Shown here: positions 6,070 through 63,679 of the stretch, one piece after another
Numbering within the stretch: the stretch's first letter is position 1
Layout of the letters: every line of letters begins with the position of its first letter
DNA from: a bacterium
GTDB taxonomy: Bacteria > Krumholzibacteriota > Krumholzibacteriia > LZORAL124-64-63
Assembly: GCA_018814885.1 (NCBI GenBank)
Contig: JAHIYU010000026.1
Coordinates: forward strand, 30,079 to 94,078
Direction: 5' to 3'
Length of the DNA stretch: 64,000 bases
Notes under the pieces: generated by a model
Databases searched by the model: none
Told to the model about the DNA's origin: nothing
Seen by the model: the letters and a program-made list of their open reading frames with translations, nothing else
Program-made: the position numbers and the translations under genes

Positions 6070-6153
6070 GCCGAGTCAACGCTCCTCTTCCCGGACCGGC
6101 ACGGCCCAGGCGCCTGGAAAATACCACAGCCGTACGGCCATGCAAACAGGAGA

Positions 6154-7074
6154 TCAGCGGGTGGCGTAGTTGTCGAGGACGTAGGGCAGGGGATTGACAT
6201 GTCGGCCACCGACGGCGACCTCGTAGTGCAGATGCGGCGCGGTCGACCGTCCCGTGTTGCCGGAGCGCCCGATCACCTCGCCACGCGCTACGCGCTGGCC
6301 GATTCGGATGGACCAGTCCGACAGGTGCGCGTAGGTCGTGGTGATGCGATTGCCGTGATCGATCCGGATCATCTTGCCGAGCCCGCGATCGTGCTTCAAG
6401 GAAAGGATGATCCCGCCGGCGACGGCGCGCACCGGCGTGCCCGAGGGGACCGAATAGTCCAGGCCGCGGTGGAAACGCGATTTCCCGGTGAAGGGGTCCT
6501 TGCGATAACCGTAGGTGGAACTGAGCCAACCGGTATCCACGGGGCGGATCGAGGGTAGATGGTCGATCGTCGTCTGTCTCGAGGTCAGCGTATCGAGCAG
6601 GGTCTGGTACCCCTTGTGCTGTATCCGCGCCTGCCTCAGCAGCTTGTTGAGATCGTGCTCGAGAGTGACGGCGGGCCTCACCCCGGCCGCAACGTCCGCG
6701 ACGAAGACGTGCGCCAGCGAGCGACCGCCGACACCGGCTTCCCTCACGTCGGGATCCACCGGGTCCAGGCCGATCGCCGCCGACACCATCTCCTGGAAGC
6801 GGTACGAGCGGTTGAGGTGATCCCGGAGCGTCTCGACCTTGTCGCCCAACTGGACCAGCTCATCGCTGAGACGCGCGTTCTCCCTCTGCAGCTCCGAGCC
6901 GCCGGGCAACCAGCTGGATCCGTGGAACAGGCCGAATACGTAGAAGGCCGCCAAGGTGAGCAGGGCGAGGGTTGCGGCACCCCCCGACACGGCCACCAAC
7001 CGCGGCACATTCAACTCGCGCGTCGCGGCGTGGTCCTCTGGCACGTACAGGAATGTGTATTTCTTGCGTAGCAT
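6154..7074 (-). CDS. M23 family metallopeptidase
   Basis: N-terminal TM plus coiled coil, then HRGLD, YAHLS, GNTGRSTAPHLHYEV. Start placed at MLRKKY. Confidence 0.9.
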   Translation of the reverse strand: MLRKKYTFLYVPEDHAATRELNVPRLVAVSGGAATLALLTLAAFYVFGLFHGSSWLPGGSELQRENARLSDELVQLGDKVETLRDHLNRSYRFQEMVSAAIGLDPVDPDVREAGVGGRSLAHVFVADVAAGVRPAVTLEHDLNKLLRQARIQHKGYQTLLDTLTSRQTTIDHLPSIRPVDTGWLSSTYGYRKDPFTGKSRFHRGLDYSVPSGTPVRAVAGGIILSLKHDRGLGKMIRIDHGNRITTTYAHLSDWSIRIGQRVARGEVIGRSGNTGRSTAPHLHYEVAVGGRHVNPLPYVLDNYATR

Positions 7075-7186
7075 GTCGGAACGGAACCAGCCTGGTAATA
7101 ACACCCGGAAACATCCACCGAGCCAAGATACCTGTATCATACCGGATGTCAACCCCGGCCGCACCGCCGCTGCGGCCGGGGCTTCG

Positions 7187-8035
7187 CTACAGGTAATCGC
7201 GCAACAACGACCGTCCGGCCGTCTGACGCATCTTGCGCAGCGCCTTTTCCTTGATCTGTCGGATGCGCTCGCGGGTCAGCCCCAGGCGCTTGCCGATGGC
7301 CTCCAGGGTCAGGGCCTCCTCCTCGCCCAGCCCATAATAGAGACTGATGATCATGGCTTCGCGTGCGGAGAGCGATCGCAGGCTTCGGCGTACGTCCTCG
7401 CGCATGACACGATCGTAGAGCCTGTCGTCCGAGCCCGGCTGCGAGTCCGCGGCCAGGGTCTCGATCAGGGGGCGGTCGTCCGTGCCCTGATCGTCCAACC
7501 CCACTTCCCCACCGTTGAGCTCCAGGGAACGTCTCACGTCCTGCGGCGACAGGTTCAGCTCGTTGGCGATCATATGATCGGTCGGGTTCTCGTTGCCCTC
7601 GCTCTGCAGCTTGGTGCGGGCCCGATTGATCTTGAGCAGCTGGGCGGTCTGGTTCTGCGGCAGCCGCACCAGCCTGGAATGATCCAGCAGGGACTGCAAG
7701 ATCGACTGCCTGATCCACCATACGGCATAACTGATGAACTTGAAGCCACGCGTCTCGTCGAAACGGTCGGCGGCCTTCAGCAGACCGATGTTGCCCTCGT
7801 TGATGAGGTCCGCCAGCGTCAACCCCTGATGGACGTAACGCTTGGCCACCGTGACCACGAAGCGCAGGTTAGCGTTGACCAGGCACTTGAGGGCTTCCTG
7901 ATCCCCTTGGTGTATGCGAGAAGCCAACTCTGTCTCATCTTCGCGGGACAGCAACTTGTACCTGTTGATCTCCTTGAAGTAGATCTCCAGGCTCTTCTCA
8001 TGAGTGGGAGGCAGGATGGACGTTCTGGTAGCCAT
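7187..8035 (-). CDS. Short RpoD/SigA-family sigma70 factor (regions 1.2-4, no region 1.1)
   Basis: YFKEINRYKLLSREDE, LVNANLRFVVTVAKRY, GFKFISYAVWWIRQSI, LTRERIRQIKEKAL. Confidence 0.93.
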   Translation of the reverse strand: MATRTSILPPTHEKSLEIYFKEINRYKLLSREDETELASRIHQGDQEALKCLVNANLRFVVTVAKRYVHQGLTLADLINEGNIGLLKAADRFDETRGFKFISYAVWWIRQSILQSLLDHSRLVRLPQNQTAQLLKINRARTKLQSEGNENPTDHMIANELNLSPQDVRRSLELNGGEVGLDDQGTDDRPLIETLAADSQPGSDDRLYDRVMREDVRRSLRSLSAREAMIISLYYGLGEEEALTLEAIGKRLGLTRERIRQIKEKALRKMRQTAGRSLLRDYL

Positions 8036-8098
8036 GATGTCCTCCTCTCGTGGGGTGCGCATCCGGCTGGAGTCCGGGGGCGGGGCCGGGATGAAGCC

Positions 8099-9547
8099 CT
8101 AGCCCTCTCTCGCTCCAGGATCGGGTTCGAGCAGGCGGTATCCATCCATGCCGCCGGACTCTATCAGCAGGGATAAGGTCTCGCTGCTGCCCGCCAGTTC
8201 CTCCCGGAGTCGCTGAAAATCCTCGGCGCCGGCAACCGACCGGCCGTTGATCTCCAGGATTACGTCCCCGGGCTGCAGACCCGCGTCGGCCGCCGGTCCG
8301 TCCGGCGCCACTGCGATGACCATCATTCCCCGTTCTCCTTCGACGCCGAGGGCGTCCTTCAAACGCCGCACGCGGGGATCGCCGCCGCCCAGGGGGGCTA
8401 CGGACATCCCGTGCCACGTATCTTCCCGGGCCGTATTTTCGCTTCCGGCCTCCGGCTCCTCCGCCGGCACGACCTCGAGCTCGATCCGTCGCCCGTCACG
8501 CAGGACCAGGCAGGAGGTGGCCTGTCCGATCTCCGCATCGCTGACGAGGAACTGCAGATCGTGGTCGTCCGCCACGTCCTCCCCGGCGAAACCTATGATC
8601 ACGTCGTTCGCGAGCAGCCCGGCGGTCTGCGCAGGCGAACCAGGCAGCACCGCCTCTACCAGCGCGCCCTGTCGTTTTCCGTCCTGCAGGTGGTCGCTGG
8701 TGCGCGCCCCCAGGTAGCCGCGAATCATGCGGCCATGAGCCACGATCTGTTCCAGGACACGGCGAGCGTAATTGCTCGGTATGGCGAATCCGATGCCCTG
8801 GGCGGATTTGTTGATCGCCGTGTTGACGCCGATCACCCGACCGCCCAGATCGAGCAGGGGGCCGCCGCTGTTGCCGAAGTTGATCGCGGCATCCGTCTGC
8901 AGGAAGTCCTGATACCTGGGTGCTCCACCGTGAATGACGAGGTCGCTGCGTCCCTTCGCGCTGACGACGCCCACAGTGACGCTGCCTTCCAGATTGCCGA
9001 AGGGGTTGCCCACGGCTATGGCCCAGTCGCCTACCCGCACGATGTCCGAGTCGCCGAAAGAAAGAGGTGTCAGGGGAGCGCTTCTCTCGATCTTGAGCAC
9101 GGCCAGATCGCTGCCGGGATCGCTGCCGACGACCACCGCTTCGTAGGTGTGGCTCTCCCCCCTGAAGCGGACGCTCACCGCGTCGGCCCTGTCGATCACG
9201 TGGAGGTTGGTGAGGATGTGTCCGTCCCGGCTGACCACGAAGCCCGTGCCGCTGCCCGTGGGATTGAAAGGCGCGCCCTCTCCCCTGTCGTCGGGGAAGT
9301 AGCGCCTGTACAGTTCGTCCATCGGGTCGAGATCCAGGCCGCCGCCGGTAACGGAGCGTTCGGCGCGGATGCTGACCACGAGATCGCGTGCGCTGGAAAC
9401 CACGGCGGTGAACGGAGAAGCCGGTGCCGGGGTATCATCCACCCGTGCCAACCCCTGGGCGCAGGCGCCTGACGTCGAGAGCGCGCCCAGCATCGCGCTC
9501 GACAACGCGATGCACGCCATGAAGGTAAATGATGAACGCACGGACAT
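8099..9547 (-). CDS. DegP/HtrA serine endoprotease with two PDZ domains
   Basis: GSGTGF, catalytic H (LTNLHV), D (SDLAVL), S (INFGNSGGPL), two PDZ units, signal peptide. Start uncertain (9547 or 9595). Confidence 0.92.
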   Translation of the reverse strand: MSVRSSFTFMACIALSSAMLGALSTSGACAQGLARVDDTPAPASPFTAVVSSARDLVVSIRAERSVTGGGLDLDPMDELYRRYFPDDRGEGAPFNPTGSGTGFVVSRDGHILTNLHVIDRADAVSVRFRGESHTYEAVVVGSDPGSDLAVLKIERSAPLTPLSFGDSDIVRVGDWAIAVGNPFGNLEGSVTVGVVSAKGRSDLVIHGGAPRYQDFLQTDAAINFGNSGGPLLDLGGRVIGVNTAINKSAQGIGFAIPSNYARRVLEQIVAHGRMIRGYLGARTSDHLQDGKRQGALVEAVLPGSPAQTAGLLANDVIIGFAGEDVADDHDLQFLVSDAEIGQATSCLVLRDGRRIELEVVPAEEPEAGSENTAREDTWHGMSVAPLGGGDPRVRRLKDALGVEGERGMMVIAVAPDGPAADAGLQPGDVILEINGRSVAGAEDFQRLREELAGSSETLSLLIESGGMDGYRLLEPDPGAREG

Positions 9548-9707
9548 CTCAGCTTGCTCCCTGCTCCAATGCACCGACACCATCGTCGGCAACACACGGA
9601 GCCGCTGGAAAGCGGCTCAAGCCGGACGCTTCGTGGGAAAAGCGACAGGGTGGGATGAATCACGTTTCGCCGGAGCCGTTGCGCCGGCCAGTTGCAGGGA
9701 TGGAACG

Positions 9708-12094: not shown

Positions 12095-15000
12095 TCAACG
12101 GGCGATCACCACGGGGCGCACACTCACCTCTCGGGAGCCGCCATCGTCGGCGATCAGACGGCAGATGTACACGCCCGACACGACGGACTCTACGTCCAAC
12201 AGGATCTCGACGGGGCCGCCGCGCGCCTGCACGACTGCCGAAGTCCGCACTTCCTCTCCCTCGAGATTGTACAAGTATGCCCGCACCTGGCAATCACGAT
12301 TCGCCAGCGCGCGCACGTGCAGTTCCTCGCCGGTCAGGGGTGTAGGGTAGCAGATATGGCTGCTGGATGTGAGCAGGGCTGCCCCTACCGGCGGCGCCGT
12401 CACGGCCCCAGCCGTTTCCGCACGTCGATCGGAGCCGCCCCACATGGGCCAGATCTCCACGGCGTCCGCGGTTCCCGGCAGACTCCACGCGGAGAGCCTG
12501 GAGACCGGATCCCCCGTGGGATCGCCAGAATCGTCATATCCACTGATACGCAGAATCGAGCCCACCGCCACCAATTCCAGCCCGGGCATCCCATCCAGAT
12601 CCATCAACAGCGGCGTGCCGGCGGTCTCTCCGGGACCCGCCAGCGGCCACCCGGACGCGAGCCGCCCGTCCCGATCGTACAGAAAGAGACGGCCGTCTCG
12701 CGATGCGAAGAGTGTATAGGCTCTTCCGCCGATCTGGGCCACGAGGGGCGATGGAGCACCGGCACCCCCGGTCGCCGTCACGGAGATCCGGGGCGCCACA
12801 GGCCATCCGGTGAGCGGGAAGCCACCCACGCCCGCCAAGACGAATCCAGCCTCGGCCACATAGCCGAGGCCCGGAGCCAGCGGCGAGGTCACGCCGGCCC
12901 ATTCCGGCCAGGCCTCGACCCCGGCAGCTTGGGGGCCATCCCAGATCATGGCGCCGCCAGTGATGGCAGGGATGATCAGAACGTCTTGTCCCGCAAACAT
13001 CAATACGCCGGAAGGTTGTCCGGGAAGCTCTACGAAACTGTCATTTTCACAATCTGCCAGGCGCCAGACGGCATCCACATCATCATACACGGGCAGCAAT
13101 GTGAGTCCACGCCAGCGGGTGGGAGGTGAGACCGCCTCGAGACCGGTGTCCGTCAGGATGTGGATCTCTTCTTCTGCCAGGTTCCAGTAGTGCAGACGCA
13201 GCCGCCCGTCCACATCCCGGCGTTCGACGATGATGGCCACATCCCTCTCCGCAGCCGAGAGCGCCATCGGGACCACGACGGTCGGTTGGCTGCAATGCTC
13301 CAGGGGCAGCACCAGCCCGTAGCTGGCGCCGTCCGCGTCGCCGTCGATCATTTCGCTGCCGTCCTCGCCGTTGAACGCGTACAACCCGGAATCCGCCGTC
13401 AACAATATTTCCGGCAGGCCGTCGAGATCGAGATCGCCCACGGCCGCCGGACCGTTCCAGCTCACGGGCTCCCCGCCCGGCCCCTTGCCCACGGCGAACA
13501 GGCCGGTCAGGGGTGAGCCTTCGCGGAAGCTCTCGAGATCATGATCGAACGCGAAGACGCGTCCCCTATCTCCCGTGGCCACGATCTCCAGCACGCCGTC
13601 CCCGGAACAGTCAAGGTCGACGGCCAGCAGGTGCGAACCGCGCAGGTCGACGTCATTCAACTGGAGAGTGGCCACGGGTTCGGGCGCGCCGCTGGCGGTC
13701 ACGTCCGTCCGACGGCACCGGAAGGTCATGGAGCCCGCGTACCGGATCACGGTATCCCCTGAGAATGGAACCACATATGCCGAATCGGCCACCACGTTGC
13801 TGATCATGTCGATGAGGATGCCGGTGGGGACGCCGCCCGACGTATCGGTCGAGGGAGAGGTCTCGGGGCCGAAGACACTGGAGTCCTCCCCCCGGAAACT
13901 GTCGTAGTCGGCACCGAGCACCCACGCCGAGGGGATCCGGCGGTCGAGATCCTGGATGCCATCGGCTTCCTCCAGATCCACCGACTTGCGAGCCGGGTCG
14001 GCGTTGAAGATGTTCTGTTCAGAGAGGAAAGCGGCCTGGATCACACCCTCGTCGATGTGCCAGATGTACAGACCGCTGCCGGCCCCCTTTGCGCCGTCCA
14101 TGCGAGCGTCGTTTTCGCTCATGAAGAAATCGAATTCCGCCCCGAAGAGCCATTCGCGTTCGTCGTGCTCCGGGTCGTACCAGCTCGTGGGAGTTCCGTC
14201 GCGGTAAATCGAGTCAGCGTCGTAGAAGTCGGGTATGTTGTTGCCGTTCAGGTCGCCCGGGAATGAGAAGATTCCGTTGCCGTCCGGATCCTGCTTGCGG
14301 TATTCTAGCAGCCAGTATTCGCTCGGTCCGATCTCGACGCGCGCCAGCGCCGAATCCGCGGCAGCGTGTTCTGCGGGATACAGCCGGAAGAAGCCGTCGG
14401 CGTCCGGATCGATTGTGTAGGGGTCCAGCCAGCCCATGAGCATCTTGTTGAAGGCGCAGGGATGGGCCGGGATGAAGCCGGCCCCGACGAACAGACCATA
14501 CCCCATCAGGCCGAACTCCCCGATGCCCTGGCTGTCGGGATGGCCGGACGGCGTGAAATCGCTCAGCGACAGCATACCCAGGCGCAGTCCCACCTCGAAG
14601 CAATAGACGCCGAGGGAGCCGAAATAGCCGCCGACACTGGCCACCGAGTCCTGGAACTCGTTTTCCGGCAGGACCAGCACCTGGTCTATGGTCACGGGCT
14701 CCCCGCCGGCGTACGCGTCGCCCGTGGGCAGCCACGGGTCGGGTATGATGTCCTCGTCCCTTGCCTCCGCGAATGCCTCCAGTCCCAGGTAGCTGCTGTA
14801 GATCTGCTCGGGCGAGTCACCGAGAATGTCGGTTTCCTCGCCGGCTCCGGCGTGAATCAGGACCACCGTGTCGAAGCGCGAGAAATCGACCTCACCGTCC
14901 AGCAAGGTGACAGCGTCCAAGGCCATTAGCACCTTCTGCTCCCCTAGTTCGGGATGATTCCCGTACCAGTTCATCGGATGAGGCAGGTTCGCCACGTTAC

Positions 15001-15492
15001 CGGCAACTTCGAAGGCGAAGGTGAAATGTCCCCCGCTGACGACATCGAAATAGGCCTGCACGTCGGTCATCTGGTGTTGATAGTAAGTCGAGTCGTGGGC
15101 CAGATAATAGAAATCGCTCTGGGCGGGGGGGGGAAATCTCCGGAGACCTGTCCATACCTGCCATAGAACAAACTGTCGGCGAAATCGCACATCAACACGA
15201 CTGCGAACAGGCTGTCGGGCGCTGCGTGGCCAGCCATACGGGCGGCCTGCAAGGACCGCGATCCTTCCTCCATCAGACGTCGCGCGCTCGCGCTCAGAGC
15301 CGGCTGGGCGTGCACGGACCAGGTTTGCCCAGGTCCGAGAGCGGCTGCTCGCGAACCGTCGGGTCTCGACGGGGGCCCGGCCGCGGCATGGACCGCGCAT
15401 ATGGCCAGCGACAGCCCCCACAACGCAACGGCGAACGCCGCCCGTCGGCATGCCGACGGGATGGCACCTCGGGCCTCGTCCCGGGTCAGCAT
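12095..15492 (-). CDS. Secreted M6/InhA-like protein with FG-GAP/VCBS-like repeats and T9SS-like CTD; frameshifted at a C9 tract; zinc motif degenerate
   Basis: Signal peptide and VVLMCDFAD in one frame (track ORF 15067..15510). The rest (YFDVVSGG, IHAGAGEE, EYWLLEYR, GLYIWHIDE, DLEEADG, GDLDLDGLPEI, YPTP..SGVY) is in another frame (12095..15451). The junction is at 15125-15133. Confidence 0.8.
15125..15133 (-). repeat. C9 homopolymer at the frameshift junction
   Basis: Plus strand c-GGGGGGGGG-aaa. C10 or C7 would join GDF-PP(P)-AQSDF in frame. Confidence 0.85.
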
Positions 15493-15552
15493 GGACTCTC
15501 CACCTTTCAAGATCGGGGAGCGAAAACCGGATCAGCGCCGCTGGATACGTGC

Positions 15553-15581
15553 ATAATAGGCTCCCGCTCCGGGAGCGTCAA
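15553..15581 (-). promoter_or_regulatory. Putative sigma70 promoter for the M6-like/porV operon
   Basis: Minus strand TTGACG-N17-TATTAT about 60 nt upstream of ATG 15492. Confidence 0.65.
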
Positions 15582-15817
15582 TCGACGCCTAGGCACCGCC
15601 ACTCACGAATCGCCGGGGAAACGATGGCAGTGGAGCTGGAGATCTAACGCCGCCACCCCTGATTGGCATTGTCTTCACTCCCGCTCCACTGCATCTCGTC
15701 GGTGATCGGCCGCTGACCGGATCGGCTGCCCGTTCCCGCTCGGTGCCAACCTCTTCAAGGATCAGGTCCTTTCCGGCCAGCCAGCGATGGGGGGATTGAT
15801 CACTCGACTCCCTGCCG

Positions 15818-17602
15818 CTAGCGCTTTGCGCCGCGGTTTGAACTTGACCTGCCGCCACCCTTGCCGCGCGGCGACGATGAGGAGCCGGAGCCTTGGCTGC
15901 GTGTCGAGCCGTCACTCTTGCTCCCGCTGTTGGACTTGGGCTTCACCGATGAGGGTGAGCGTTCGTTCGGCGTATTGCCGCCCTCCGGCTTTGCCGTCTG
16001 AGGCTTGCGCGTCGGGGTCTTATCGCCATCGGATCGTGGTTTGGCCTCCGGTGCCTTGCGTGTCGGTTCGTCATTTCCTGGGCGAGGCTTGACGGTACGC
16101 GCAGGCTTCTGGTCGCGGCTGCCACCTTGCCAGATCCGCGAACCCTGAGTGTGGGGCTTGACAGGGCGCACGGCGCGGACGTCGTTCACCTGGGGTGCGG
16201 TCCGGGTGCCGGGCGACACGCGAATGGGCTGCTGGCCTTCGGAGGCATCGGGTCGCACGGGACGGGCATCCTCCCGGCCGTCGCGGCCTGTGGCGGGGTT
16301 GGGCCTCACTGCGGGCCCGTCGGTGCTGTTGCGACCGACGCCGCTCGGCATCCTGATACCCGGCGCCCGCTCGTCGCGGGGCTGCTTAGTGAAACCGGCG
16401 ACCGGCTTCACGGCTCGGCCGGTGTCCTTGAACTCGCGGCGTGCGTCCACTCTCTGGTCGGACCTGCCGAGTTCCTGCTTGCGGATCGCCTCCTTGCGGT
16501 TCATGGACGCCACCATGTCCTTGGTGGGACGCGGCGTCTTCACGATCGCACCAGGATGTTCGTAGTCTCGTTCACCTTGGTTGTCTGCGTACCGGTGGTT
16601 CTTGACGATCGGCCGGTAACGCTGGCGGCCTTCCTTGTATCTGACCCAGACATCCCCGCGCCAGTACGGCGAGTAGTTCCAGACGTAGCAGTCGAAATCC
16701 CAGACGGAATACCCCCACGTAGGCCAGGCGTACCAGGGCCGGTACCAGTAGTTGATCCACGGGCGCCAGGTCCAGGGATCCACGTAGTAGTAGACGGGGT
16801 AGTAGTAGGCGGGGTAATACTGGTAGCGGCCGTACCAGTCGTTATCCCAGCTGTAATCGTGATGGATCTCGATCAAGCAAGTATCGCTGTAGGGCTGGTA
16901 ACTGCTGTCGTCGTGGCACTGCGTGCACATGTAACGGGGGTAATCGACCTTGCGGTGCACATAGTAGCTCAGATAGTTGGTCACCACGTAGTCGGAAGGA
17001 TCCTCGAGCCCGGTCACGGCGTAGTTGACGTCGTTCATGGCCAGGAATGGATCGCCAGCCACGTAATAACCTTGCTCCTCTTGCCCGCTTTCGTGGTGGA
17101 AATCCACCTCCAGGTTACGCAGGTCGAAGGGGTAGGCGGAAACGAGAACCTGCACATATTCTACACCTTCCGTGCCGGCGGTCCTGATGCGTTCGGCGCC
17201 CGGTGTTGGCAGGTTGTATGTGTGATTGCCGAAGACGAAACCGTCGTCGTAGCGGCTTCGCGGCCAGAGTATGGACACCAAGCCTTCGGCATCGATACGA
17301 TACACCACGGCATAGGCGTCGCTGTTGGCCTCGAAATGGATGCGAACGGCCTCCCCGCGCTGGTAAATCTCGTCGTCCCCGCGATCGTGCCAGATGTTCA
17401 CACGGTAGGGCTGGTTCTCGAACCCGTTCCAGCCGTCCGACATGGCGGGTGTCCCTTCGGCAGGCTGGGCCCTGGCCGTAGCGAAGCCCACCGCGAGAGC
17501 CAGTGCGATCAACACTGACATCGCCACGCGCAGCCCCGGACTGGGCTGGGACGATGTTGCTCCGCAGGCCGGCTTGAAGTTCATCACTCGTTTCGTCTTC
17601 AT
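15818..17602 (-). CDS. Secreted DUF4384-domain protein with CxxCH, Trp/Tyr-rich middle and disordered basic tail
   Basis: Signal peptide (ALAVGFATARA), DUF4384-like YQRGEAVRIHFEANSDAYAVVYRIDAEG..ILWP, CTQCH, YYPAYYYPVYYY, P/K/R/S-rich C-terminus. Confidence 0.75.
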   Translation of the reverse strand: MKTKRVMNFKPACGATSSQPSPGLRVAMSVLIALALAVGFATARAQPAEGTPAMSDGWNGFENQPYRVNIWHDRGDDEIYQRGEAVRIHFEANSDAYAVVYRIDAEGLVSILWPRSRYDDGFVFGNHTYNLPTPGAERIRTAGTEGVEYVQVLVSAYPFDLRNLEVDFHHESGQEEQGYYVAGDPFLAMNDVNYAVTGLEDPSDYVVTNYLSYYVHRKVDYPRYMCTQCHDDSSYQPYSDTCLIEIHHDYSWDNDWYGRYQYYPAYYYPVYYYVDPWTWRPWINYWYRPWYAWPTWGYSVWDFDCYVWNYSPYWRGDVWVRYKEGRQRYRPIVKNHRYADNQGERDYEHPGAIVKTPRPTKDMVASMNRKEAIRKQELGRSDQRVDARREFKDTGRAVKPVAGFTKQPRDERAPGIRMPSGVGRNSTDGPAVRPNPATGRDGREDARPVRPDASEGQQPIRVSPGTRTAPQVNDVRAVRPVKPHTQGSRIWQGGSRDQKPARTVKPRPGNDEPTRKAPEAKPRSDGDKTPTRKPQTAKPEGGNTPNERSPSSVKPKSNSGSKSDGSTRSQGSGSSSSPRGKGGGRSSSNRGAKR

Positions 17603-17638
17603 GGCCGTACCTCCTGGTCCGGACCTTGGAATCGCCCC

Positions 17639-18556
17639 TTAGAAGCGAACGATCTCGTCTTTTCTGGCGCCACCGGATTCCCTATCGGCTCGCACCTTCA
17701 GTTCCCTGTTGAAATTGTCGATCTGGTAGGCCCAGTCCACGTCTACGTAGTTTTCTTCCTCGGCGTACACATAGAACTTGGCGTAATGCACGTTCGTATC
17801 AGGATCTTCCGTGATCTTGACGATGTAGGAATGCCCCTCGATCAATTCGGCCCGACCCGCGTTGGAATATCCCGAATCGGGAGCGTAATCGACATAGTCC
17901 AGGGGTATCGTACCGTAATCCTGGAGATGCACGATGTCCGGTCGCGCGGCGATCACGAAGGGGACGCCCTCCGCGAAGGCGACATAGATGTCTGCAGTGG
18001 GCGCGTCCCAGGCCATGCGACCGTCAGCCAGCCGGCTGAAGTCGAAACCGCTGCGATCGGGATGAGCGCCGTACCTGTCATATAGCAGAAGTTCGTACCC
18101 GGCCGGACGGGGCGTATCCACGACCGTTTCGAAGCTCAGCGTGCTCTCGTTGCCACTTTCGTCGAAAGCCAGCACGGCATAGTAATAGGTCTCGCCGTTC
18201 ACGACATCCTCATCGTCAAACCAGTGCAGAAGCGTCTGCTCGTCGAAATTCTCGTCCCAGGCCACATCGCCCAGCCAGTAGTAGGCACCGTAGACGGGAT
18301 TGTTTCCGTCATGGCGGTAGACGGCATAGCCGATCAGGTCGAGCTCGTATATGTCGTTCCAGTACACCGAGACAACTTCGTCGCCGGTCACAGTGAATAC
18401 CCCGGTCGGCACCGCTGGCGGATCATCGTCGATGTACGTCACATCCTCGTCGCAACCCAGCATGGCCACCGAGAAGATCAGGACTGTCATGAGCCCCATG
18501 AATCTGCCCAGACCGGCACCAAGATGCCTGGTGTGTACTGGATGATTGGTTCCCAT
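17639..18556 (-). CDS. Lipoprotein with FN3-like domain and an uncharacterised (possibly HmuY-like) C-terminal beta domain
   Basis: Lipobox AMLG-C, PPAVPTG..VYW..YAVYR..GETYYYAVLAFD..GNES FN3 pattern, then GFDF..GHSYIVK..YAKF..DWAYQ. SD GGGAGG. Confidence 0.7.
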   Translation of the reverse strand: MGTNHPVHTRHLGAGLGRFMGLMTVLIFSVAMLGCDEDVTYIDDDPPAVPTGVFTVTGDEVVSVYWNDIYELDLIGYAVYRHDGNNPVYGAYYWLGDVAWDENFDEQTLLHWFDDEDVVNGETYYYAVLAFDESGNESTLSFETVVDTPRPAGYELLLYDRYGAHPDRSGFDFSRLADGRMAWDAPTADIYVAFAEGVPFVIAARPDIVHLQDYGTIPLDYVDYAPDSGYSNAGRAELIEGHSYIVKITEDPDTNVHYAKFYVYAEEENYVDVDWAYQIDNFNRELKVRADRESGGARKDEIVRF

Positions 18557-18606
18557 GATTCACCTCCCGTCTGGTTCAGCAGTCAGGTATTCCTGATTCC
18601 CTATTA

Positions 18607-18622
18607 CGCACGGGACGTGCCA
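18607..18622 (-). promoter_or_regulatory. Putative sigma54 (-24/-12) promoter for the lipoprotein-DUF4384 operon
   Basis: Minus strand TGGCACGTCCCGTGCG with GG and GC 10 nt apart, about 50 nt upstream of ATG 18556. Confidence 0.65.
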
Positions 18623-18892
18623 ACAGGCAGACCGAGCCTCTCGCAGACGTCGAACAGCCGTCCGGTATGTACGTTCCTGGCCGTATCTCCTTTATTTACC
18701 GGGGAATTCAGGGGGTATACCACGTGCCACGATTGGCAATTGGCAAGGGAACTCCAGAATCGCTTACGGGAGCGGAGAGATCATATGTCTCTCCTGATGA
18801 TCAACCGATCCCCGAATGAGGACGGTGCGGCACGAGGCACGGGTCCCCTAGTCGATTCCCGCATATCGGCTCCGTTGCGTCCATCGGCGGTC

Positions 18893-19221
18893 GATAAGAG
18901 AAAGAAAGAGCCTCCAGCCCGCCATCGGGCTGCCCGGTCCTGAGTCTCGCCACATCAGGATCGGGGTGGCTCTTTCTTCTCAATCATGATCTTGTAGAAC
19001 GGATATTCGGAAGGGAAAGGATTCACAGCTTTCTCCACTCGGTGTGCGGATCGGCCTGGACCCCACATCCAGATCAACTCGACACGAGTCTCATCGTTGA
19101 AAACTCCCCTCATACAGCCGGTTGTTGATGAGGGCGTGAATCCGTTCCCCTTTCCGGGTTCCTTGATGAATCAATGGGTCGGTGCAAGTCCATCCCTGCA
19201 ACTGCTCCCACCCTCTTTCGA
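18893..19221 (-). ncRNA. Candidate sigma54-dependent small RNA (GGA-rich 5' part, three-way junction and U-rich 3' end)
   Basis: No credible ORF. Begins ~12 nt downstream of the -12 element at 19233, has 8 GGA motifs in 19105-19208, and ends in a multi-stem structure at 18902-18978 followed by CUCUUUCUUUCUCUU. Confidence 0.4.
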
Positions 19222-19231
19222 GAGCAATCAT

Positions 19232-19247
19232 TGCAGGCCGCATGCCA
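19232..19247 (-). promoter_or_regulatory. Putative sigma54 (-24/-12) promoter directly downstream of the TPR activator
   Basis: Minus strand TGGCATGCGGCCTGCA with GG-N10-GC spacing, close to consensus TGGCACGNNNNTTGCW. Confidence 0.6.
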
Positions 19248-19385
19248 ACGTCCTACTTGGCAGTAACTTTGTAACTGACTTTCTCCATTGAGATTACAGA
19301 CGCAATCCCGCCAGCTCGTATGACAAGGCCATGACCATGGGCAATAGAGTTCGCATCTGTACCATCGATATCATAACTTCCTTCA

Positions 19386-19398
19386 AATCAACATGTTG
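19386..19398 (+). promoter_or_regulatory. IHF-like site in an AT-rich tract
   Basis: AATCAACATGTTG matches WATCAANNNNTTR. 19381-19440 has only 19/60 G+C. Confidence 0.35.
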
Positions 19399-19455
19399 TG
19401 ATATAAATATATTTTACACCCACTCAGGGTAAGATAACAGGAATTGCCATATGGG

Positions 19456-22400
19456 TCAGGAGTTGTCGAGGCCGTAGACACGGACCTTCTTTAGCAGATT
19501 CGGGTAGCTGATCCCCAGCAGACGAGATGCTTCAGCCTTGTTTCCGCCCGTGTGTTCGAGGGTCCGCATGATCTCTCGGGCCTCGACCGCGCCGATGGTT
19601 TCGCGCAAGGGGGAAATCGCGCGCGCGCCATCGCCGTCGGGAAGAGATCTTGTGACCTCGGGAGGCAGATGTGATATGCGCAACATGGGCTCGCCATGGG
19701 CGAGCACGATGGCTCGGTTGATCGATTTGACCAGTTCGCGGACGTTGCCAGGCCAGTCATGCTGCGCCAGGGCCTCCATGAAGGAGGAGGTGCAGCCGGG
19801 AGTCTCGATCCTCGTTAGCGCGACATAGCGGGCTATGAAGTGCGTGGCCAGCAAAGGAATGTCATCCTGGCGGTCGCGCAGGGGGGGGACAACAACCGGG
19901 AAATCGAGCAATCTGTAGTACAGATCCTCTAGATAAGTGCCACATCCGACTTTCTCCTTCAGATCGCTCTTCGTGGCGCAGACGATCCGCACATCCACAA
20001 CGCGGCTACGATTGGACCCCACCGGCCTCACCGTATGCGTATCGATGAAGTGAAGGAGCTTGCCCTGCATGCCCAGCGGCAGTTTCCCGATTTCGTCCAG
20101 GAACACTGTGCCGCCCGCGGCCTCGGCGAGCAGACCCGTCTTGTCAGCGATAGCGCCTGTGAAACTGCCCTTCACATGTCCGAAGAGTTCGCTTTCGAGC
20201 AGCGATTCGGGGATGGCCGCGCAATTGATGGCGAGGAACTTCCGGTCCCTTCGCTCGCTGAGCCTATGGATGGCATGGGCCAGCAGCCCCTTGCCGGTCC
20301 CTGTCTCGCCTTGCAGCAGCACCGTCAACTCGCTCGCAGCTACCTTGCGAATCAGGACCAGCATTTCCCGCATCTCGGCATTGCGGGTGATGATCTGGGA
20401 GAAGGCCTCGTGCCTGTCGCTCTCATCCCAGGAGACGGCGACCGGCCTGTTGCGTTCCTCCTCCGCGAGCGACATGGCAAGATAACCAGCCGCCGCGGCC
20501 ATGTGGTCGAGTACGGGTTTCAGAGCCAGACCATCGTCTTCGTCCCTGGTGCGTGACCCCAGGCAGAGCACGCCGTAGCATTTATCCGGCACGGCCACGG
20601 GCAGGAACAGGCATGAATTGCAGTTGGATGCCAGGCCGGGCACTTCCTCCAGGACATCCTGGGCCAGATCGGTGCGCGTCAAAAGTCGGGGTGTAGGAAC
20701 TTCATCCACGCGCGTCTCCGTAAACCAGAACGCCGCCTGATGTGCCACAGGGCGTGAGAGTCCTCTGGTCACGATCCTGGCGCCACCGCCAACAGGTGCC
20801 GCCCAGGGTTCGAGGACGACAAATCCCATGTCCGCCGAGGCGCGCGACATGCACGAATCAAGGAAAGTGGCCAGGGTATCTTCGGTGATCGAGCCATTTT
20901 TCAGCGATATGACAGGCGCTACCGGAACCTTCATCTCAATGGATGGCCATGCGCCGACCAGGGCCTTTTCGATGCGAATGCGCAGATCGCCGTGCCGTGA
21001 AAGCAGATCCGGATCGTCAACGTTCTCAGCGGCGCGTTCGAACTCGCTGGCCGTCAACAACGCTTCGTCCAGGTCGCCGAGCCGCAGCAGCACCTCGGCC
21101 AACCCGGCTTGCAGGCGGCAATAGAGGAGATCGTCTGCCCGGGATTGGGCACCTTCGAGAGCATCGTGGAGACTGCGGCGCAGACGCAGCAACTGACTGC
21201 GGCCTCCGCGTTCCAGGCTGAAGTCGAGGCTGGCCAGGATGGCTCTCGATGCGAGCCGCGGCAAACGCTGAGAATTGAAAATCTTGATCGCCCCGCGGAA
21301 ATGATCGTCGGCTTGATCGTCTTCACCGAGATTGGCCAAGGCTTCGGCCAGGGCCAGATAGCAGAATCCGAGTTCGTAATCCTCTCCACAACTCTGGCAA
21401 ACAGTGATGGCAGCCCGGGCGAATTCGGCCGCCTGCAGCCAATCGCTCGCCTGGAGGCTGGCCTCGGCGCAACGGCGCAGCAATTCGCCTTCGAGATCGG
21501 TGAGCGTGTTGATGCGTTTGGTCTTCTCGAGGCCGAGGCCGTAATTGTAAAGGGCCTTCTCGCTTTCTCCGCGCTCGAGCAGCAGATCACCCATGTACTC
21601 GTCGGCAATTATCGATTCGCGCATGAAGCCGGCTTCATCGGAGATGTGCTTGCCGGTGAGGATGAGTTCCTCGGCGCGCAACAGATGGCCCTCTATGAGT
21701 TCCAGTTGACCGAGCGCCAGGCTGGCCTTGGCCTGACGGTCCATATCCCCGAGACTGACGGCAAGACGCAAGCTCTTCTCGAAGGCCGCGCGCGCCTCGC
21801 CCGGAGATTCGGCCTTGCGCAGGATGATGCCTTCGTTCAGGTGCAAGCGGGCCAGCAGGTGGGACGCGCCATGCTCGCTGGCCAAGGCGATGGAGCGGTT
21901 CTGGTACTCCATTGCCTTGTCCCAGCGACACGCGTTCTTGTGTACCAAGGCAAGGTTGTTGTAGAGGGAGGCCATACCGAGTTCATCGCTGATACGACGG
22001 AAAGTCGCCAGGGCGTCGGTGTAGAATTCCTCGGCTTTGTCGAGTCGGCCAAGCCGATGATGACAGACACCCATGGTGACCTGGAGGTTGGCCACTTCGA
22101 CGTGATCGTCGGTGACGGCCAGTACTGCGAACGCACGTTTGCATATCTGCAAGGCGTCCTTGTATGCGCCACGCTGCGTGTAGAGGGCGGCGTGGCGTCC
22201 CAGGAGCGGTGCTATCAACAGCCGTTCATCGGCCGGGTCGAGGTTCTCGACGGTCGCTATGAAGCCATCGGCATCATGCAGCAATCGCTCGGCCAAGGCG
22301 AGGTCACCCAAATTGAGCGCCGCATCTATACTCTTGCGGCAGATCTCCAGGATATGAGAGACCTCGAGCTGGTTCAGGGCCGCGGAGGCGAGGATGCGCT

Positions 22401-22557
22401 GGTAATAGTCCAGGGAAGTCGAGAAGGCCGAGGCTTCGAAGTGCAGATCACCCACTTCCTCGAGGCGCACGAGAGCGGCAAGATCCGCGGGCACGCCATG
22501 CCTCATGGATTCAGTTTCGTCTTGTCGTCGTCTTTCAAACTGGTGATCCATCGACAT
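19456..22557 (-). CDS. TPR-GAF-sigma54 AAA+-Fis HTH transcriptional activator (bEBP without receiver domain)
   Basis: ~500 aa of TPR-like helices (e.g. MGVCHHRLGRLDKAEEFYTDAL, LYNNLALVHKNACRWDKAMEYQ), a GAF-like segment, GETGTGKGLLA, ESELFGHVKGSFTGA, FLDEIG, WPGNVREL and GNKAEASRLLGISYPNL. Start 22551-22596. Confidence 0.92.
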   Translation of the reverse strand: MSMDHQFERRRQDETESMRHGVPADLAALVRLEEVGDLHFEASAFSTSLDYYQRILASAALNQLEVSHILEICRKSIDAALNLGDLALAERLLHDADGFIATVENLDPADERLLIAPLLGRHAALYTQRGAYKDALQICKRAFAVLAVTDDHVEVANLQVTMGVCHHRLGRLDKAEEFYTDALATFRRISDELGMASLYNNLALVHKNACRWDKAMEYQNRSIALASEHGASHLLARLHLNEGIILRKAESPGEARAAFEKSLRLAVSLGDMDRQAKASLALGQLELIEGHLLRAEELILTGKHISDEAGFMRESIIADEYMGDLLLERGESEKALYNYGLGLEKTKRINTLTDLEGELLRRCAEASLQASDWLQAAEFARAAITVCQSCGEDYELGFCYLALAEALANLGEDDQADDHFRGAIKIFNSQRLPRLASRAILASLDFSLERGGRSQLLRLRRSLHDALEGAQSRADDLLYCRLQAGLAEVLLRLGDLDEALLTASEFERAAENVDDPDLLSRHGDLRIRIEKALVGAWPSIEMKVPVAPVISLKNGSITEDTLATFLDSCMSRASADMGFVVLEPWAAPVGGGARIVTRGLSRPVAHQAAFWFTETRVDEVPTPRLLTRTDLAQDVLEEVPGLASNCNSCLFLPVAVPDKCYGVLCLGSRTRDEDDGLALKPVLDHMAAAAGYLAMSLAEEERNRPVAVSWDESDRHEAFSQIITRNAEMREMLVLIRKVAASELTVLLQGETGTGKGLLAHAIHRLSERRDRKFLAINCAAIPESLLESELFGHVKGSFTGAIADKTGLLAEAAGGTVFLDEIGKLPLGMQGKLLHFIDTHTVRPVGSNRSRVVDVRIVCATKSDLKEKVGCGTYLEDLYYRLLDFPVVVPPLRDRQDDIPLLATHFIARYVALTRIETPGCTSSFMEALAQHDWPGNVRELVKSINRAIVLAHGEPMLRISHLPPEVTRSLPDGDGARAISPLRETIGAVEAREIMRTLEHTGGNKAEASRLLGISYPNLLKKVRVYGLDNS

Positions 22558-22640
22558 TGTCCCCCGGCGAGAAGGCGGGCAATTCGACTCGGTCACGACT
22601 CCTGAAGGCTGGGCCTGATCCGGCGCTCAAATGGAGGCAA

Positions 22641-22970
22641 TCAGATCAGACCCTGATACAACAGCATCGTCAATAGCGCGAGCCACTGGTCAAAATCGGC
22701 TTCATTCAGATCTGGTACCCCCGCAAGGGCAGAGAGATCGAAAGTATCGCCTGTTGCACCATTGTTCCGGTTTCCGGTGATGGCGTCATCGGGATCGCCC
22801 AGGCACTCGAATTCATCACCCGGTACGACATTCTGGGGAGAGTTCGTGGCTGGTGAATCCTCTTGAAGCATGATGTCCTGAGCAGACGCTGCCGCTCTGG
22901 CGATACCGGGACCGGTCGATACCGCTGCCAGGGTCAGGAGCAGGCTTAAACTGATAAGTGCTCTTTTCAT
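22641..22970 (-). CDS. Small secreted acidic protein (109 aa), candidate signalling-peptide precursor
   Basis: SD GGAG, Sec signal MKRALISLSLLLTLAAVSTGPGIARA, acidic middle with CLGDPDD, hydrophobic end FDQWLALLTMLLYQGLI. Confidence 0.7.
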   Translation of the reverse strand: MKRALISLSLLLTLAAVSTGPGIARAAASAQDIMLQEDSPATNSPQNVVPGDEFECLGDPDDAITGNRNNGATGDTFDLSALAGVPDLNEADFDQWLALLTMLLYQGLI

Positions 22971-23077
22971 GATCCCACTCCACATTCTCGAGATCGGGGC
23001 GGCTGTTTCCCCGAAATAGGTGTTCAAGACGAACACGCAGGACGAACCGCATGTCACCTCAAGTCCTTACCCCTTAT

Positions 23078-23106
23078 ATTCTATGGGTGTTTTGGATATC
23101 TGTCAA
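23078..23106 (-). promoter_or_regulatory. Near-consensus sigma70 promoter for the small-protein/TPR-activator operon
   Basis: Minus strand TTGACA-N17-TAGAAT. Confidence 0.8.
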
Positions 23107-23121
23107 TAGACCGGGGGCTAT

Positions 23122-24483
23122 TCATTCGCCAGCCTGGGTCTGCAGCCCATATTTGCTGATCTTCTTGTACAGGTTGCTGCGTTGCATACCGAGCTGTTCG
23201 GCGGTGCGGCTGACATTGAAGCGGTTCTCGCGCAGTTTAGCCTGTAGGTACATCGATTCGGAACGAGCCTTGAACTCCTGGAAATCGGTGCAGCTCATCC
23301 AGTCCCACTCTCCAGCCCTGGTCTCGGGTCCGCTGCCTGATAGGACGGGCAGATCCTTCGGTCTGATCAGATCGCCAGGGACGAGAATCATCAGCCTTTC
23401 CACGAGATTGCGCAGTTCGCGCACGTTACCGGGCCAGGCATAGGTGCGAAGCAGGGCGAGTGTCTCCGCCGTGAAGGTCTTCGGCTTCTTTTTGAGCTGG
23501 ACCGCCATCGCGGACATGAAATGCTCCAGCAGAAGACTCACGTCCCCTCCCCTCTCACGCAGGGGGGGCAGTTCGACGGACAGCACGTTCAAACGGAAAT
23601 ACAGGTCCTGGCGGAAATTGGCTGCGGGACCGGTGAGGTCTCGGTTGGTTGCGGCCACGATCCGTACATCGACCTGACGCGCTTCGCGACCACCGACACG
23701 CTCGAAGCGGCTCTCCTCCACGGCCTTGAGCACCTTCGCCTGGGCTTCCTCGCTCATGTCGCCGATCTCGTCGAGGAACAGCGTGCCACCGTCGGCCTGT
23801 TCGAACTTTCCCACGCGCATCTTATCTGCCCCGGTAAAGCTGCCTTTCTCGTGGCCGAACAGCTCGCTCTCGACGAGTTCGCGCGGAATGGCCGCGCAAT
23901 TGACCTCTACGAGAGGCATGTCCCGACGAGGACTGCCGGCATGGAGGGCCCGTACCACCAGCTCCTTGCCCGTTCCATTCTCGCCGGTGATCAGGACGGT
24001 CGCAGCGGTAGGTGCGACGCTGTCGATGAAATCGCGGACCTCGCGGATACGCGCGCATTCTCCGATCAACGGCTTGTTGTAGCCGCTGCGATCGCGCAGA
24101 TCCTCTGTCTGCCCGCGCAGGCCGAAGTGATCGAGGCAGTTCTGGAGGGTCAGCAGCAGACGCGACCTGTCAAGCGGCTTCTCGAGAAAATCGTAGGCGC
24201 CCTTACGAACGGCCTCCACGGCGGTCTCGACGTTGCCGTGGCCGGAGACCACGATGACGGGGACCTCGAACCCGGCGTCGGTCATCCTCTCCAGGACCTC
24301 GAAACCGTCCATGTCGGCCATCTTGATGTCCAGCAGCATTACATCGATCCTCTTGTCCGCGAGGATCGCCAGGGCTGCGGCGCCATTGGCGGCCAGCTGC
24401 ACCGCGTATTGCTCGTAGGTCAGCAGCTGCTCGAGCGTCTGCCGGATCGCGGCTTCGTCGTCTACGACCAGGATCGTGCGCAA
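23122..24483 (-). CDS. NtrC/NtrX-family sigma54-dependent response regulator
   Basis: ILVVDDE, LLDIKM receiver; GENGTGKELV, ESELFGHEKGSFTGA, WPGNVRELRN; Fis HTH. Confidence 0.93.
   Translation of the reverse strand: MRTILVVDDEAAIRQTLEQLLTYEQYAVQLAANGAAALAILADKRIDVMLLDIKMADMDGFEVLERMTDAGFEVPVIVVSGHGNVETAVEAVRKGAYDFLEKPLDRSRLLLTLQNCLDHFGLRGQTEDLRDRSGYNKPLIGECARIREVRDFIDSVAPTAATVLITGENGTGKELVVRALHAGSPRRDMPLVEVNCAAIPRELVESELFGHEKGSFTGADKMRVGKFEQADGGTLFLDEIGDMSEEAQAKVLKAVEESRFERVGGREARQVDVRIVAATNRDLTGPAANFRQDLYFRLNVLSVELPPLRERGGDVSLLLEHFMSAMAVQLKKKPKTFTAETLALLRTYAWPGNVRELRNLVERLMILVPGDLIRPKDLPVLSGSGPETRAGEWDWMSCTDFQEFKARSESMYLQAKLRENRFNVSRTAEQLGMQRSNLYKKISKYGLQTQAGE

Positions 24484-63602: not shown

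Positions 63603-63679
<77 letters not shown>

Follow-up and report, generated by a model that had tools for sequence, protein, structure and literature searches.

What is transcribed from a sigma-54 promoter that faces no protein gene? The question is raised by a 64,000-nucleotide (nt) stretch of a Krumholzibacteriota genome (GenBank assembly GCA_018814885.1, contig JAHIYU010000026.1, positions 30,079 to 94,078), hereafter called the window. Here a gap of ~900 nt on the minus strand separates the stop codon of a gene for a 1046-aa sigma-54 activator (19456-22596) from the start of a gene for a 305-aa protein (17639-18556). An original prediction, made from the letters of the window, had placed a sigma-54 promoter in this gap and proposed that it drives a small regulatory RNA (sRNA) of the Csr/Rsm or Qrr kind. 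We conclude that the minus-strand segment 19219..18894 probably encodes a structured non-coding RNA whose family had not been described before; this RNA would be sigma-54-dependent, linked to an activator and active in trans. The segment has its own promoter and terminator hairpin, is highly transcribed in nature, has a fold supported by covariation and, in every relative examined, is present as a single copy between the activator gene and an operon for surface proteins (Table 1).

Results

An abundant RNA begins at a conserved sigma-54 promoter

A simple consensus scan of both strands returned only 13 sigma-54 sites of comparable quality in the 64-kb window, and two of these 13 lie in the gap, both facing the same way and correctly oriented. 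The site that concerns us first, the -24/-12 element at 19232-19247, is not peculiar to this genome, as a GG-N10-GC element is found at a fixed distance upstream of the conserved RNA start in all 32 homologues that we collected. The start near 19221 that had been predicted from the -12 element agrees with two boundaries: the 5' end of a contig assembled from RNA-seq data falls at 19219, only a few nt away, and in blastn comparisons with the closest genome loci the conservation of the gap sets in at window position 19219 and stops at the foot of the terminal hairpin. The spacing of the -24 GG and the -12 GC is that of a sigma-54 transcription unit, the activator encoded next to it carries a GAFTGA-type loop, and the 5' end of the transcript lies ~12 nt past the -12 GC, the last value being read from contigs that are unstranded and whose ends can be trimmed.

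The availability of metatranscriptomic data allowed us to assess transcription of the gap in nature. In a groundwater metatranscriptome (X4), a 214-nt contig spans exactly 19006-19219 at a word depth of 42.8, ~10-fold above the depth of 2.9-5.2 seen for contigs on the activator gene, on the 305-aa gene and in the rest of the gap. RNA coverage in X4 is absent at 19220-19313, and this break, followed by a tenfold jump, rules out read-through from the activator gene. Thus, an abundant and discrete RNA begins at the sigma-54 start site. Contigs of relatives in two other metatranscriptomes, 210 nt (~90% identity) and 235 nt long, both stop in the linker that follows the 5' core of the RNA, and one end of the 235-nt contig is the equivalent of 19219. 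A DNA run of the same organism assembles unbroken across the region at 13x, so that the break at 19006 is not an assembly problem caused by a hairpin. A transcript of ~330 nt had been expected from the promoter; its start and the size of the conserved unit (~326 nt) stood, while the abundant contig covers only 214 nt. The ~214-nt 5' core may be the stable mature form.

Table 1. Features of the RNA gene and of the module around it. Positions refer to the window unless preceded by the handle of another locus.
Feature	Position	Strand	Description and basis
Sigma-54 -24/-12 promoter of the RNA gene	19232..19247	-	TGGCATgcggcCTGCA, TGGCAT-N5-CTGCA
Primary transcript, ~326 nt	18894..19219	-	start site to U-tract; conservation block by blastn, nhmmer and covariance model
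Abundant 5' core	19006..19219	-	214-nt metatranscriptome contig
P1 hairpin	19176..19213	-	14-nt loop 19201-19188 with GCAGGGA, including CAGGGAUG at 19198-19191; CCAG/CUGG vs GCAG/CUUGC compensation
P2, 5' strand	19135..19156	-	CGGAAAGGGGAAC-GGAUUCAC; purine-rich, three GGA motifs; pairs with 19027-19008
P3 hairpin	19107..19134	-	loop ACCGGC (19122-19117); 7 pairs, 6/7 changed on both sides
P4-P5-P6 arm	19028..19104	-	P6 hairpin 19078-19050, loop A-GUGGGGU (19068-19060); P6: 10/11 pairs changed on both sides
P2, 3' strand	19008..19027	-	GUGAAUCC-UUUCCCUUCCG; comparative pairing
Linker	18980..19007	-	variable, A/U-rich, single-stranded; abundant RNA species ends there; alignment, contig ends
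P7 branched terminator domain	18901..18979	-	A-tract/U-tract outer stem GAAGAAAGAGCC/GGCUCUUUCUUU, P7a, P7b, U-rich tail; covariation
Candidate upstream activating sequence	19398..19420	-	imperfect palindrome GGTGTAAAATATATTTATATCAC, ~200 nt upstream of the start; -201 to -203 in 9 closer homologues
Inverted repeat	19270..19298	-	TGTAAT-N17-GTTACA at ~-79; -79 to -81 in 6 loci
Second sigma-54 promoter, for the downstream operon	18607..18622	-	TGGCACgtcccGTGCG; consensus scan; ~50 nt before the 305-aa gene
Downstream operon	12095..18556	-	FN3-like lipoprotein (305 aa), DUF4384 protein, M6-like/FG-GAP surface protein
TPR + AAA+ + HTH sigma-54 activator, 1046 aa	19456..22596	-	Pfam, motifs
Small secreted protein, 109 aa	22641-22970	-	between the two activator genes; signal peptide, GDPDDAITGNR, hydrophobic C-terminus
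NtrC-type response-regulator activator	23122-24483	-	Pfam, motifs; part of conserved module 22641..24483
~145-nt RNA loci	L044:5588-5752, L060:5591-5760, L064:5536-5705, L073:5566-5735, L077:4531-4702

The RNA has a covarying fold with invariant loops

RNAalifold returned one architecture for the whole set of aligned homologues and for seven clades taken separately, clearly so in five of them, and the minimum free energy structure of the single sequence (-139.7 kcal/mol, z = -4.7) agrees with this comparative structure. Its backbone is P2, a long-range helix of ~20 base pairs (bp) that closes a core made of P3 and the P4-P5-P6 arm. Thirteen of the 18 P2 pairs that were scored have changed on both sides, and 80.6% of the cells are paired. 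Pairs were counted on MAFFT alignments that had not been fitted to the structure, with a mean column identity of 59% for the 5' domain and 53% at full length. On these alignments 80.2% of the cells are paired in the 5' domain and 82.3% in the 3' domain, compared to 40-52% and 38-54%, respectively, when the partners are slid; in each domain 0 of 500 shuffles matched the observed value. Cells changed on both sides number 228 in the 5' domain vs 69-126 in the slid controls. The covariation across syntenic regions that had been named as a check on the prediction is therefore present, with compensatory changes beyond those of both slid and shuffled controls.

The helices display loops that hardly vary. 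ACCGGC, A-GUGGGGU and GGCGAG(A) are invariant in 31 of 31 aligned sequences, the last one forming the P7a loop (GGCGAGA at 18951-18945), and the GCAGGGA of P1 is nearly so, with GCUGGGC in L014 and GUAGGGA in L012. When the loops were checked by eye for pseudoknot complementarity, no conserved loop-loop pairing of more than 3 bp was found.

At the 3' end, the structured and U-rich segment that had been noticed in the sequence turns out to be an extended, branched hairpin (18979-18901) with a U-rich tract behind it. This terminator hairpin and its U-rich tail covary; contigs stop before it (19006) or, in relatives, within or past P7. In the group-B clade (locus L006), contigs of two runs extend into the terminal domain as far as the P7a loop, and those of two further runs cross P7 but resemble DNA or read-through. 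We also observed that contigs of two unrelated metatranscriptomes (X23 and X24) end at the identical base of the P7a loop (L006:5605, GGCGAG/A); this shared end could be a processing site or a library artefact related to the hairpin. Between the terminator and the operon, upstream of the proximal promoter, the window itself shows low RNA coverage (depth 3.4 at 18572-18849, minus strand), a signal that might come from weak read-through, from a further start site or from DNA present in the library.

The RNA family keeps company with a constant set of genes

Homologues were collected by two routes. An alignment of the 305-aa protein led to 80 genome loci, and a DNA pattern made from three conserved motifs of the RNA led to 48 metagenome loci, of which 17 were true. 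Homologues of the protein occur in metagenome-assembled genomes whose labels are Latescibacteria, Krumholzibacteriia and Zixibacteria, among others. For the RNA we obtained 32 distinct homologues (31 aligned, together with L012, which was found via the covariance model) on genome and metagenome contigs with labels such as Krumholzibacteriia or Latescibacteria, and all 32 are flanked by a TPR-type activator gene and the surface-protein operon. Wherever the flanking sequence is long enough, one gene order recurs: NtrC-type response-regulator activator, small open reading frame (ORF), TPR activator, RNA, 305-aa gene, DUF4384 gene and large M6-like/FG-GAP gene.

A covariance model of the 5' domain was searched in the window and in 65 further loci, from Zixibacteria, Poribacteria, KSB1 and others. 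It found a single copy in the window, L012 (E = 8e-6) and an isolated P6 hairpin in the distant L022 (E = 0.002), and detected no RNA in the remaining Zixibacteria, Poribacteria, KSB1 and other loci. As only L012 and the P6 of L022 matched among the 65, the RNA is confined to the lineages that have the TPR activator. The comparison with Rfam, another check that had been proposed, pointed to no known family, Csr/Rsm and Qrr included: at the gathering threshold Rfam 15 had no match for the full window or for 12 loci, and relaxing the cut-off to E<=10 for the region and for one divergent homologue brought up chance matches only, with no CsrB/CsrC/RsmX/Y/Z, Qrr, 6S or other family.

In five loci labelled Eisenbacteria, Latescibacterota or Bacteroidota, a shorter RNA of ~145 nt lies behind the distal sigma-54 promoter. 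Its parts are a 5' hairpin with a GGAGG/CCUCC stem and a GGGGGA loop, a second, long hairpin whose loop reads CACCGGC, and also a terminator, so that the GGGA and ACCGGC loops are kept. This RNA is probably a reduced relative of the one in the window.

The module has two sigma-54 promoters and two activators

According to Pfam, the 1046-aa protein joins a TPR/MalT-like domain to a sigma-54 interaction domain, an AAA lid and a Fis-type HTH (HTH_8); it carries GSFTGA as well as Walker A and B motifs. Further upstream in the module stands the NtrC-type response regulator. The gene of the 109-aa protein that lies between the two activator genes occupies the same position in 13 distinct related loci; neither Pfam nor NCBIfam gave a match for the protein, which is possibly a partner of the TPR sensor or its ligand.

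It was correct that no protein gene begins in the gap until 18556, but the gene that starts there has its own sigma-54 promoter at 18622..18607, which had been missed. All RNA-bearing loci with enough flanking sequence have this operon promoter, 13-119 nt ahead of the gene. The module is thus one of two sigma-54 promoters and two activators, and the elements upstream of the promoters are of different kinds. The RNA promoter has, in closer relatives, a palindrome of the type GGTRTTAA-N5-TTAAYACC at -201 to -203, whose counterpart at 19398..19420 may be an activator binding site. Nearer to the promoter, the inverted repeat of the window, which reads TGTAAC-N17-GTTACA in relatives, is a second candidate for an activator site or may be an element of the IHF region. 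The operon promoter is preceded by other elements, CGTCCYC...GRGGGACA.

The distribution of these parts suggests which activator serves which promoter. A gap of 580-2000 nt holding two sigma-54 promoters is found in all 24 loci that have the TPR activator beside the operon, some of them distant (27-30% identity). In six loci the NtrC-type activator alone is near the operon (five labelled Zixibacteria or FCB group and one Hydrothermota); there the gap is 125-182 nt long, lacks the RNA and had at most one scoring promoter. From this co-occurrence pattern and the differing upstream elements we infer that the TPR activator acts on the RNA promoter, and that the NtrC-type response regulator probably serves the operon promoter. 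In the six NtrC-only loci (L019, at 3012-3035, L020, L021, L028, L034 and L047) a palindrome TGCACAAT-N3-ATTGTGCA stands before the sigma-54 promoter of the operon; it is likely the binding site of the NtrC-type activator, and it is absent from the gap of the window.

Most GGA motifs are paired

The abundance of GGA motifs that had suggested a Csr/Rsm-like RNA is real. There are eight in 19105-19208 (starting on the minus strand at 19208, 19195, 19191, 19162, 19155, 19148, 19143 and 19107) and seven in 19141-19208; four of them are ANGGA, and CAGGGAUG is present at 19198-19191. No 104-nt segment of the window holds more than eight GGA; the mean is 2.0-2.3, and eight are reached at four places of the minus strand and at none of the plus strand. 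The GGA density is beyond chance.

Their position in the fold is another matter. The motifs at 19155, 19148 and 19143 lie inside the P2 duplex, the one at 19208 in the P1 stem and the one at 19107 at the end of P3. Single-stranded are only those at 19195 and 19191, in the P1 loop, and at 19162, in a linker, and only the CAGGGAUG of the P1 loop is conserved. The check for GGA in loops hence gives three of eight single-stranded, one of which is conserved, with three of eight in P2 and two of eight in stems or stem ends. Because the GGA richness is mainly the purine strand of the long helix P2, we do not file the RNA under Csr/Rsm; with most GGA paired, a single conserved loop GGA and no Rfam match, this part of the original prediction was not borne out. 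On a practical matter, the example indicates that a high GGA count can reflect the purine strand of a long helix and not CsrA sites.

Discussion

Relation to known sigma-54-dependent and structured RNAs

Several well-studied RNAs offer points of comparison: the Qrr RNAs, which are ~100 nt long, Hfq-dependent and base-pairing; CrcZ, which is ~400 nt long, is encoded directly downstream of cbrB and carries repeated A-rich motifs for Hfq/Crc; NrsZ, a processed repeat RNA; and the Csr/Rsm sponges, which expose 5-22 GGA in loops or single strands and whose transcription is under regulators of the GacA/UvrY type rather than sigma-54. CrcZ and CrcY of Pseudomonas are activated by the sigma-54 enhancer-binding protein CbrB, which binds the upstream hexamer subsites TGTTAC/GTAACA (PMC6296734). 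The RNA described here resembles this system in that its gene follows immediately on that of a sigma-54 activator and is equipped with a sigma-54 promoter of its own and with candidate upstream activator sites, one of which, the TGTAAT/GTTACA repeat, recalls the subsites of CbrB. It also resembles CrcZ in being long and abundant, and CrcZ acts by sequestering a protein regulator. However, there is no similarity in sequence or in Rfam, the activator has a TPR sensor instead of a receiver domain, and the place of the repeated A-rich (AANAANAA) motifs is taken by four G- or C-rich motifs on a junctioned fold.

The parallel with Vibrio LuxO and Qrr1-5, which had been drawn from the outset, holds in part. 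Both systems depend on sigma-54 and an activator, one qrr gene adjoins luxO as our RNA gene adjoins that of the TPR activator, and in both the RNA is the non-coding output of a signalling pathway. The RNA is, however, no Qrr homologue: at ~326 nt (core 214 nt) it is a single-copy RNA with a long-range helix and a junction, no Qrr model of Rfam matches it at E<=10, and the TPR activator, unlike LuxO, is not a response regulator. NrsZ of Pseudomonas aeruginosa, encoded just downstream of ntrBC, and GlnZ, from the 3' untranslated region of enterobacterial glnA, are also RpoN-dependent sRNAs (PMC9731577). They too form a non-coding arm of an activator regulon, and the gene of NrsZ adjoins that of its activator, but they are nitrogen-regulated and unrelated in sequence and structure.

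The likeness to CsrB/CsrC and RsmX/Y/Z is limited to a high GGA density, one loop with the consensus-like CAGGGAUG and a high abundance, whereas the pairing of most GGA, the one conserved loop GGA, the sigma-54 promoter and the lack of an Rfam match set our RNA apart. Like raiA, OLE, ROOL and GOLLD, classes of large structured bacterial RNA without an assigned function, it measures a few hundred nt, has a covarying multi-helix fold with loop or junction nucleotides that do not vary, and came to light through comparative genomics of little-studied lineages. It matches none of their models, however, and differs by a clearly defined, regulated promoter and by its constant genetic association with a signalling protein. 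In arrangement and logic we would place it closest to cbrB-crcZ, ntrBC-nrsZ and luxO-qrr1. Among these, CrcZ is the nearest counterpart as to size, abundance and the likely binding of a protein; the sequence, fold and motifs of the RNA are those of none of the three systems.

Proposed role

The suggestion that the output of the TPR activator includes a regulatory RNA is well supported by the promoter, the transcription, the conserved structure and the constant link to the activator gene. We propose that the TPR activator would switch on the RNA promoter and that the RNA, as the non-coding output of the signalling module, would act in trans. GCAGGGA, ACCGGC, GUGGGGU and GGCGAGA would be its contact surfaces, since the presence of conserved loop motifs at helix tips on a conserved scaffold suggests specific recognition. 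The loop motifs are G-rich and resemble ribosome-binding sites (GCAGGGA and, in most sequences, GGAGGUGGGG), which fits a protein decoy better than an ordinary mRNA seed. We therefore tentatively regard a protein partner as the most likely mode, the RNA possibly serving as decoy or scaffold for an RNA-binding regulator that recognizes G-rich, ribosome-binding-site-like loops; that the decoyed protein is CsrA in particular seems improbable. Base pairing with C/U-rich targets has a smaller share, somewhat on the unlikely side, and the remainder falls to other modes, cis-acting or unforeseen.

Two explanations would assign the RNA to a known functional class. If it were a sponge, its loop GGA motifs would titrate a translational repressor of the CsrA/RsmA family. 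The consensus for CsrA obtained by systematic evolution of ligands by exponential enrichment (SELEX) is RUACARGGAUGU, and the CAGGGAUG of the P1 loop matches its core exactly, within a near-invariant GCAGGGA counted in 31 of 32 homologues; the tip of P6 shows GGA(G/U)GUGGGG, and the RNA is very abundant. A 2026 survey reported CsrA homologues in Krumholzibacteriota and Eisenbacteria, few of them predicted to be canonical-CsrA-like (PMC13443453), and in two KSB1-type loci fliW-csrA lies directly upstream of the homologous operon. But, besides the pairing of most GGA described above, the invariant loops ACCGGC, GGCGAGA and GUGGGGU are not GGA motifs and the Csr/Rsm models of Rfam do not match at E<=10. 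Furthermore, csrA was found neither in the 64-kb window nor in any RNA-bearing locus, csrA and fliW being present only in the two KSB1-type loci, which lack the RNA, and a protein search with the KSB1-type CsrA gave, among its best 120 matches, none named from the RNA-bearing lineages. The CsrA link is weakened by these results, and we regard a CsrA sponge as a doubtful candidate. In the two KSB1-type loci (L069:4345-5118 and L025:4574-5311) fliW and csrA are followed by a single sigma-54 promoter, TGGCATATCCGTTGCA, and the leader in L069 has two AAGGAU; this adjacency may be coincidental, or it may point to the operon being regulated as a target of CsrA. Less doubtful, if still unlikely, is a Qrr-like sRNA that pairs with several mRNAs with the help of a chaperone and uses the invariant loops as seeds. 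It would share with luxO-qrr1 the sigma-54 promoter and the adjoining activator gene, its invariant single-stranded 6-7-mers behave as seeds would, and it ends in a terminator hairpin with a U tail. It would, however, be three times the size of a Qrr RNA, with a multi-helix junction, one copy in the window and no Rfam Qrr match; its seeds would be rich in G, just the contrary of the common anti-Shine-Dalgarno type, and have no conserved complement in the leader of the adjacent operon. The gene hfq was not found in the window or among the collected loci, which says nothing of the remainder of the genome.

Other explanations would deny the RNA an independent existence or a non-coding nature. As a cis-acting leader or attenuator, it would control the 305-aa gene by read-through of P7, and it does lie on the strand of the operon and always upstream of it, with low RNA coverage that persists at 18849-18572 and, in some runs, contigs of relatives that cross P7 (although these may be DNA). 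However, the operon has its own conserved sigma-54 promoter ~270 nt past the terminator and an RNA depth about a tenth of that of the RNA. In L004, moreover, a 271-aa transposase-like ORF on the opposite strand with an N-terminal zinc-finger-like motif (4816-5631, minus strand) has been inserted between the RNA terminator and the operon promoter, so that the RNA stands 1.4 kb from the operon, and both promoters have been kept. We rejected the leader on account of the second promoter and this insertion and consider it very unlikely; the RNA's own terminator hairpin, the operon's own promoter, the ~tenfold higher abundance and the insertion in L004 together argue that the RNA is independent of the operon. 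Even less credible is a gene for a small protein. Minus-strand ORFs of 50-60 codons do occur in the region, but the 52-aa ORF at 19113..18955 has lost its ATG in L001 and is frameshifted by 1-nt indels in other homologues, no reading frame is conserved (across the 31 aligned homologues, the length of the longest ORF varies between 0 and 90 aa), and substitutions are compensatory in helices and not codon-periodic. The region was rightly called ORF-less, and we rejected the small protein as its ORF is not conserved. The equally remote idea of a functionless chance feature is excluded by the conservation of the RNA and its promoter and by the expression.

Several points weigh against a sigma-54-dependent, activator-linked RNA that acts in trans, or against parts of this proposal. 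The abundant contig stops at 19006 in the linker, ahead of P7, so that the 3' end lies either at ~18894 or, after processing, near 19006, and P7 with its invariant loop would be missing from a 214-nt mature form. The contigs, taken from Logan, are unstranded, and the strand is deduced from the promoter, the terminator and the excess of G-U over A-C cells (242:116), which favours the minus strand. What ties the TPR activator to activation of the RNA promoter is co-occurrence and adjacency only. In the leader and start region of the neighbouring operon, no reverse complement of any of the four loop motifs is conserved, and G-rich seeds are unusual for base-pairing sRNAs. Function, partner and target are the inferential side of the proposal.

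We believe that the RNA adds a well-supported family, with 32 members, a covarying fold, conserved loops and expression in nature, to lineages in which essentially no regulatory RNAs are known. It extends the pattern of an activator gene followed by its sigma-54-dependent sRNA, as in LuxO-Qrr, CbrB-CrcZ and NtrC-NrsZ, from Proteobacteria to candidate phyla, and to an activator with a TPR sensor outside two-component systems. Together with the surface-protein operon, the second activator and the small secreted protein, it forms a compact and testable module, with which the signal of the TPR activator and the protein or RNA that reads the four loops can be addressed. In a more speculative version, to which we give a low probability, the module would be a self-contained signalling circuit without described precedent, in which the secreted GDPDDAITGNR protein, or a peptide derived from it, is sensed by the TPR domain in the manner of RRNPP peptide receptors, and the activator then switches on an RNA that decoys a CsrA-family or other ribosome-binding-site regulator. 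To our knowledge, no sRNA antagonist of a CsrA-family or ribosome-binding-site-binding regulator has been described outside Proteobacteria; such a circuit, if true, would provide one, and would correspond in function to LuxO-Qrr while consisting of unrelated parts, in uncultured members of the Krumholzibacteriota, Eisenbacteria and Latescibacterota.

The downstream operon and its neighbourhood

Structure prediction and fold search describe the 305-aa protein as a generic lipoprotein with a tandem FN3-like sandwich (predicted local distance difference test, pLDDT, 84.6), and the M6-like/FG-GAP protein carries a weak sorting signal of the type 9 secretion system. Sigma-54 regulons are known to be biased towards the cell exterior (PMC3162934), and a surface-protein operon under the second promoter fits this bias. 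Downstream of the operon, 4705-9595 on the minus strand is a cell-envelope neighbourhood, with genes for a DegP/HtrA-type protease, a sigma-70-family factor, an M23 peptidase and an AmiC-type amidase with LysM. At the far end of the window there is a tRNA gene at 63603-63676 on the plus strand.

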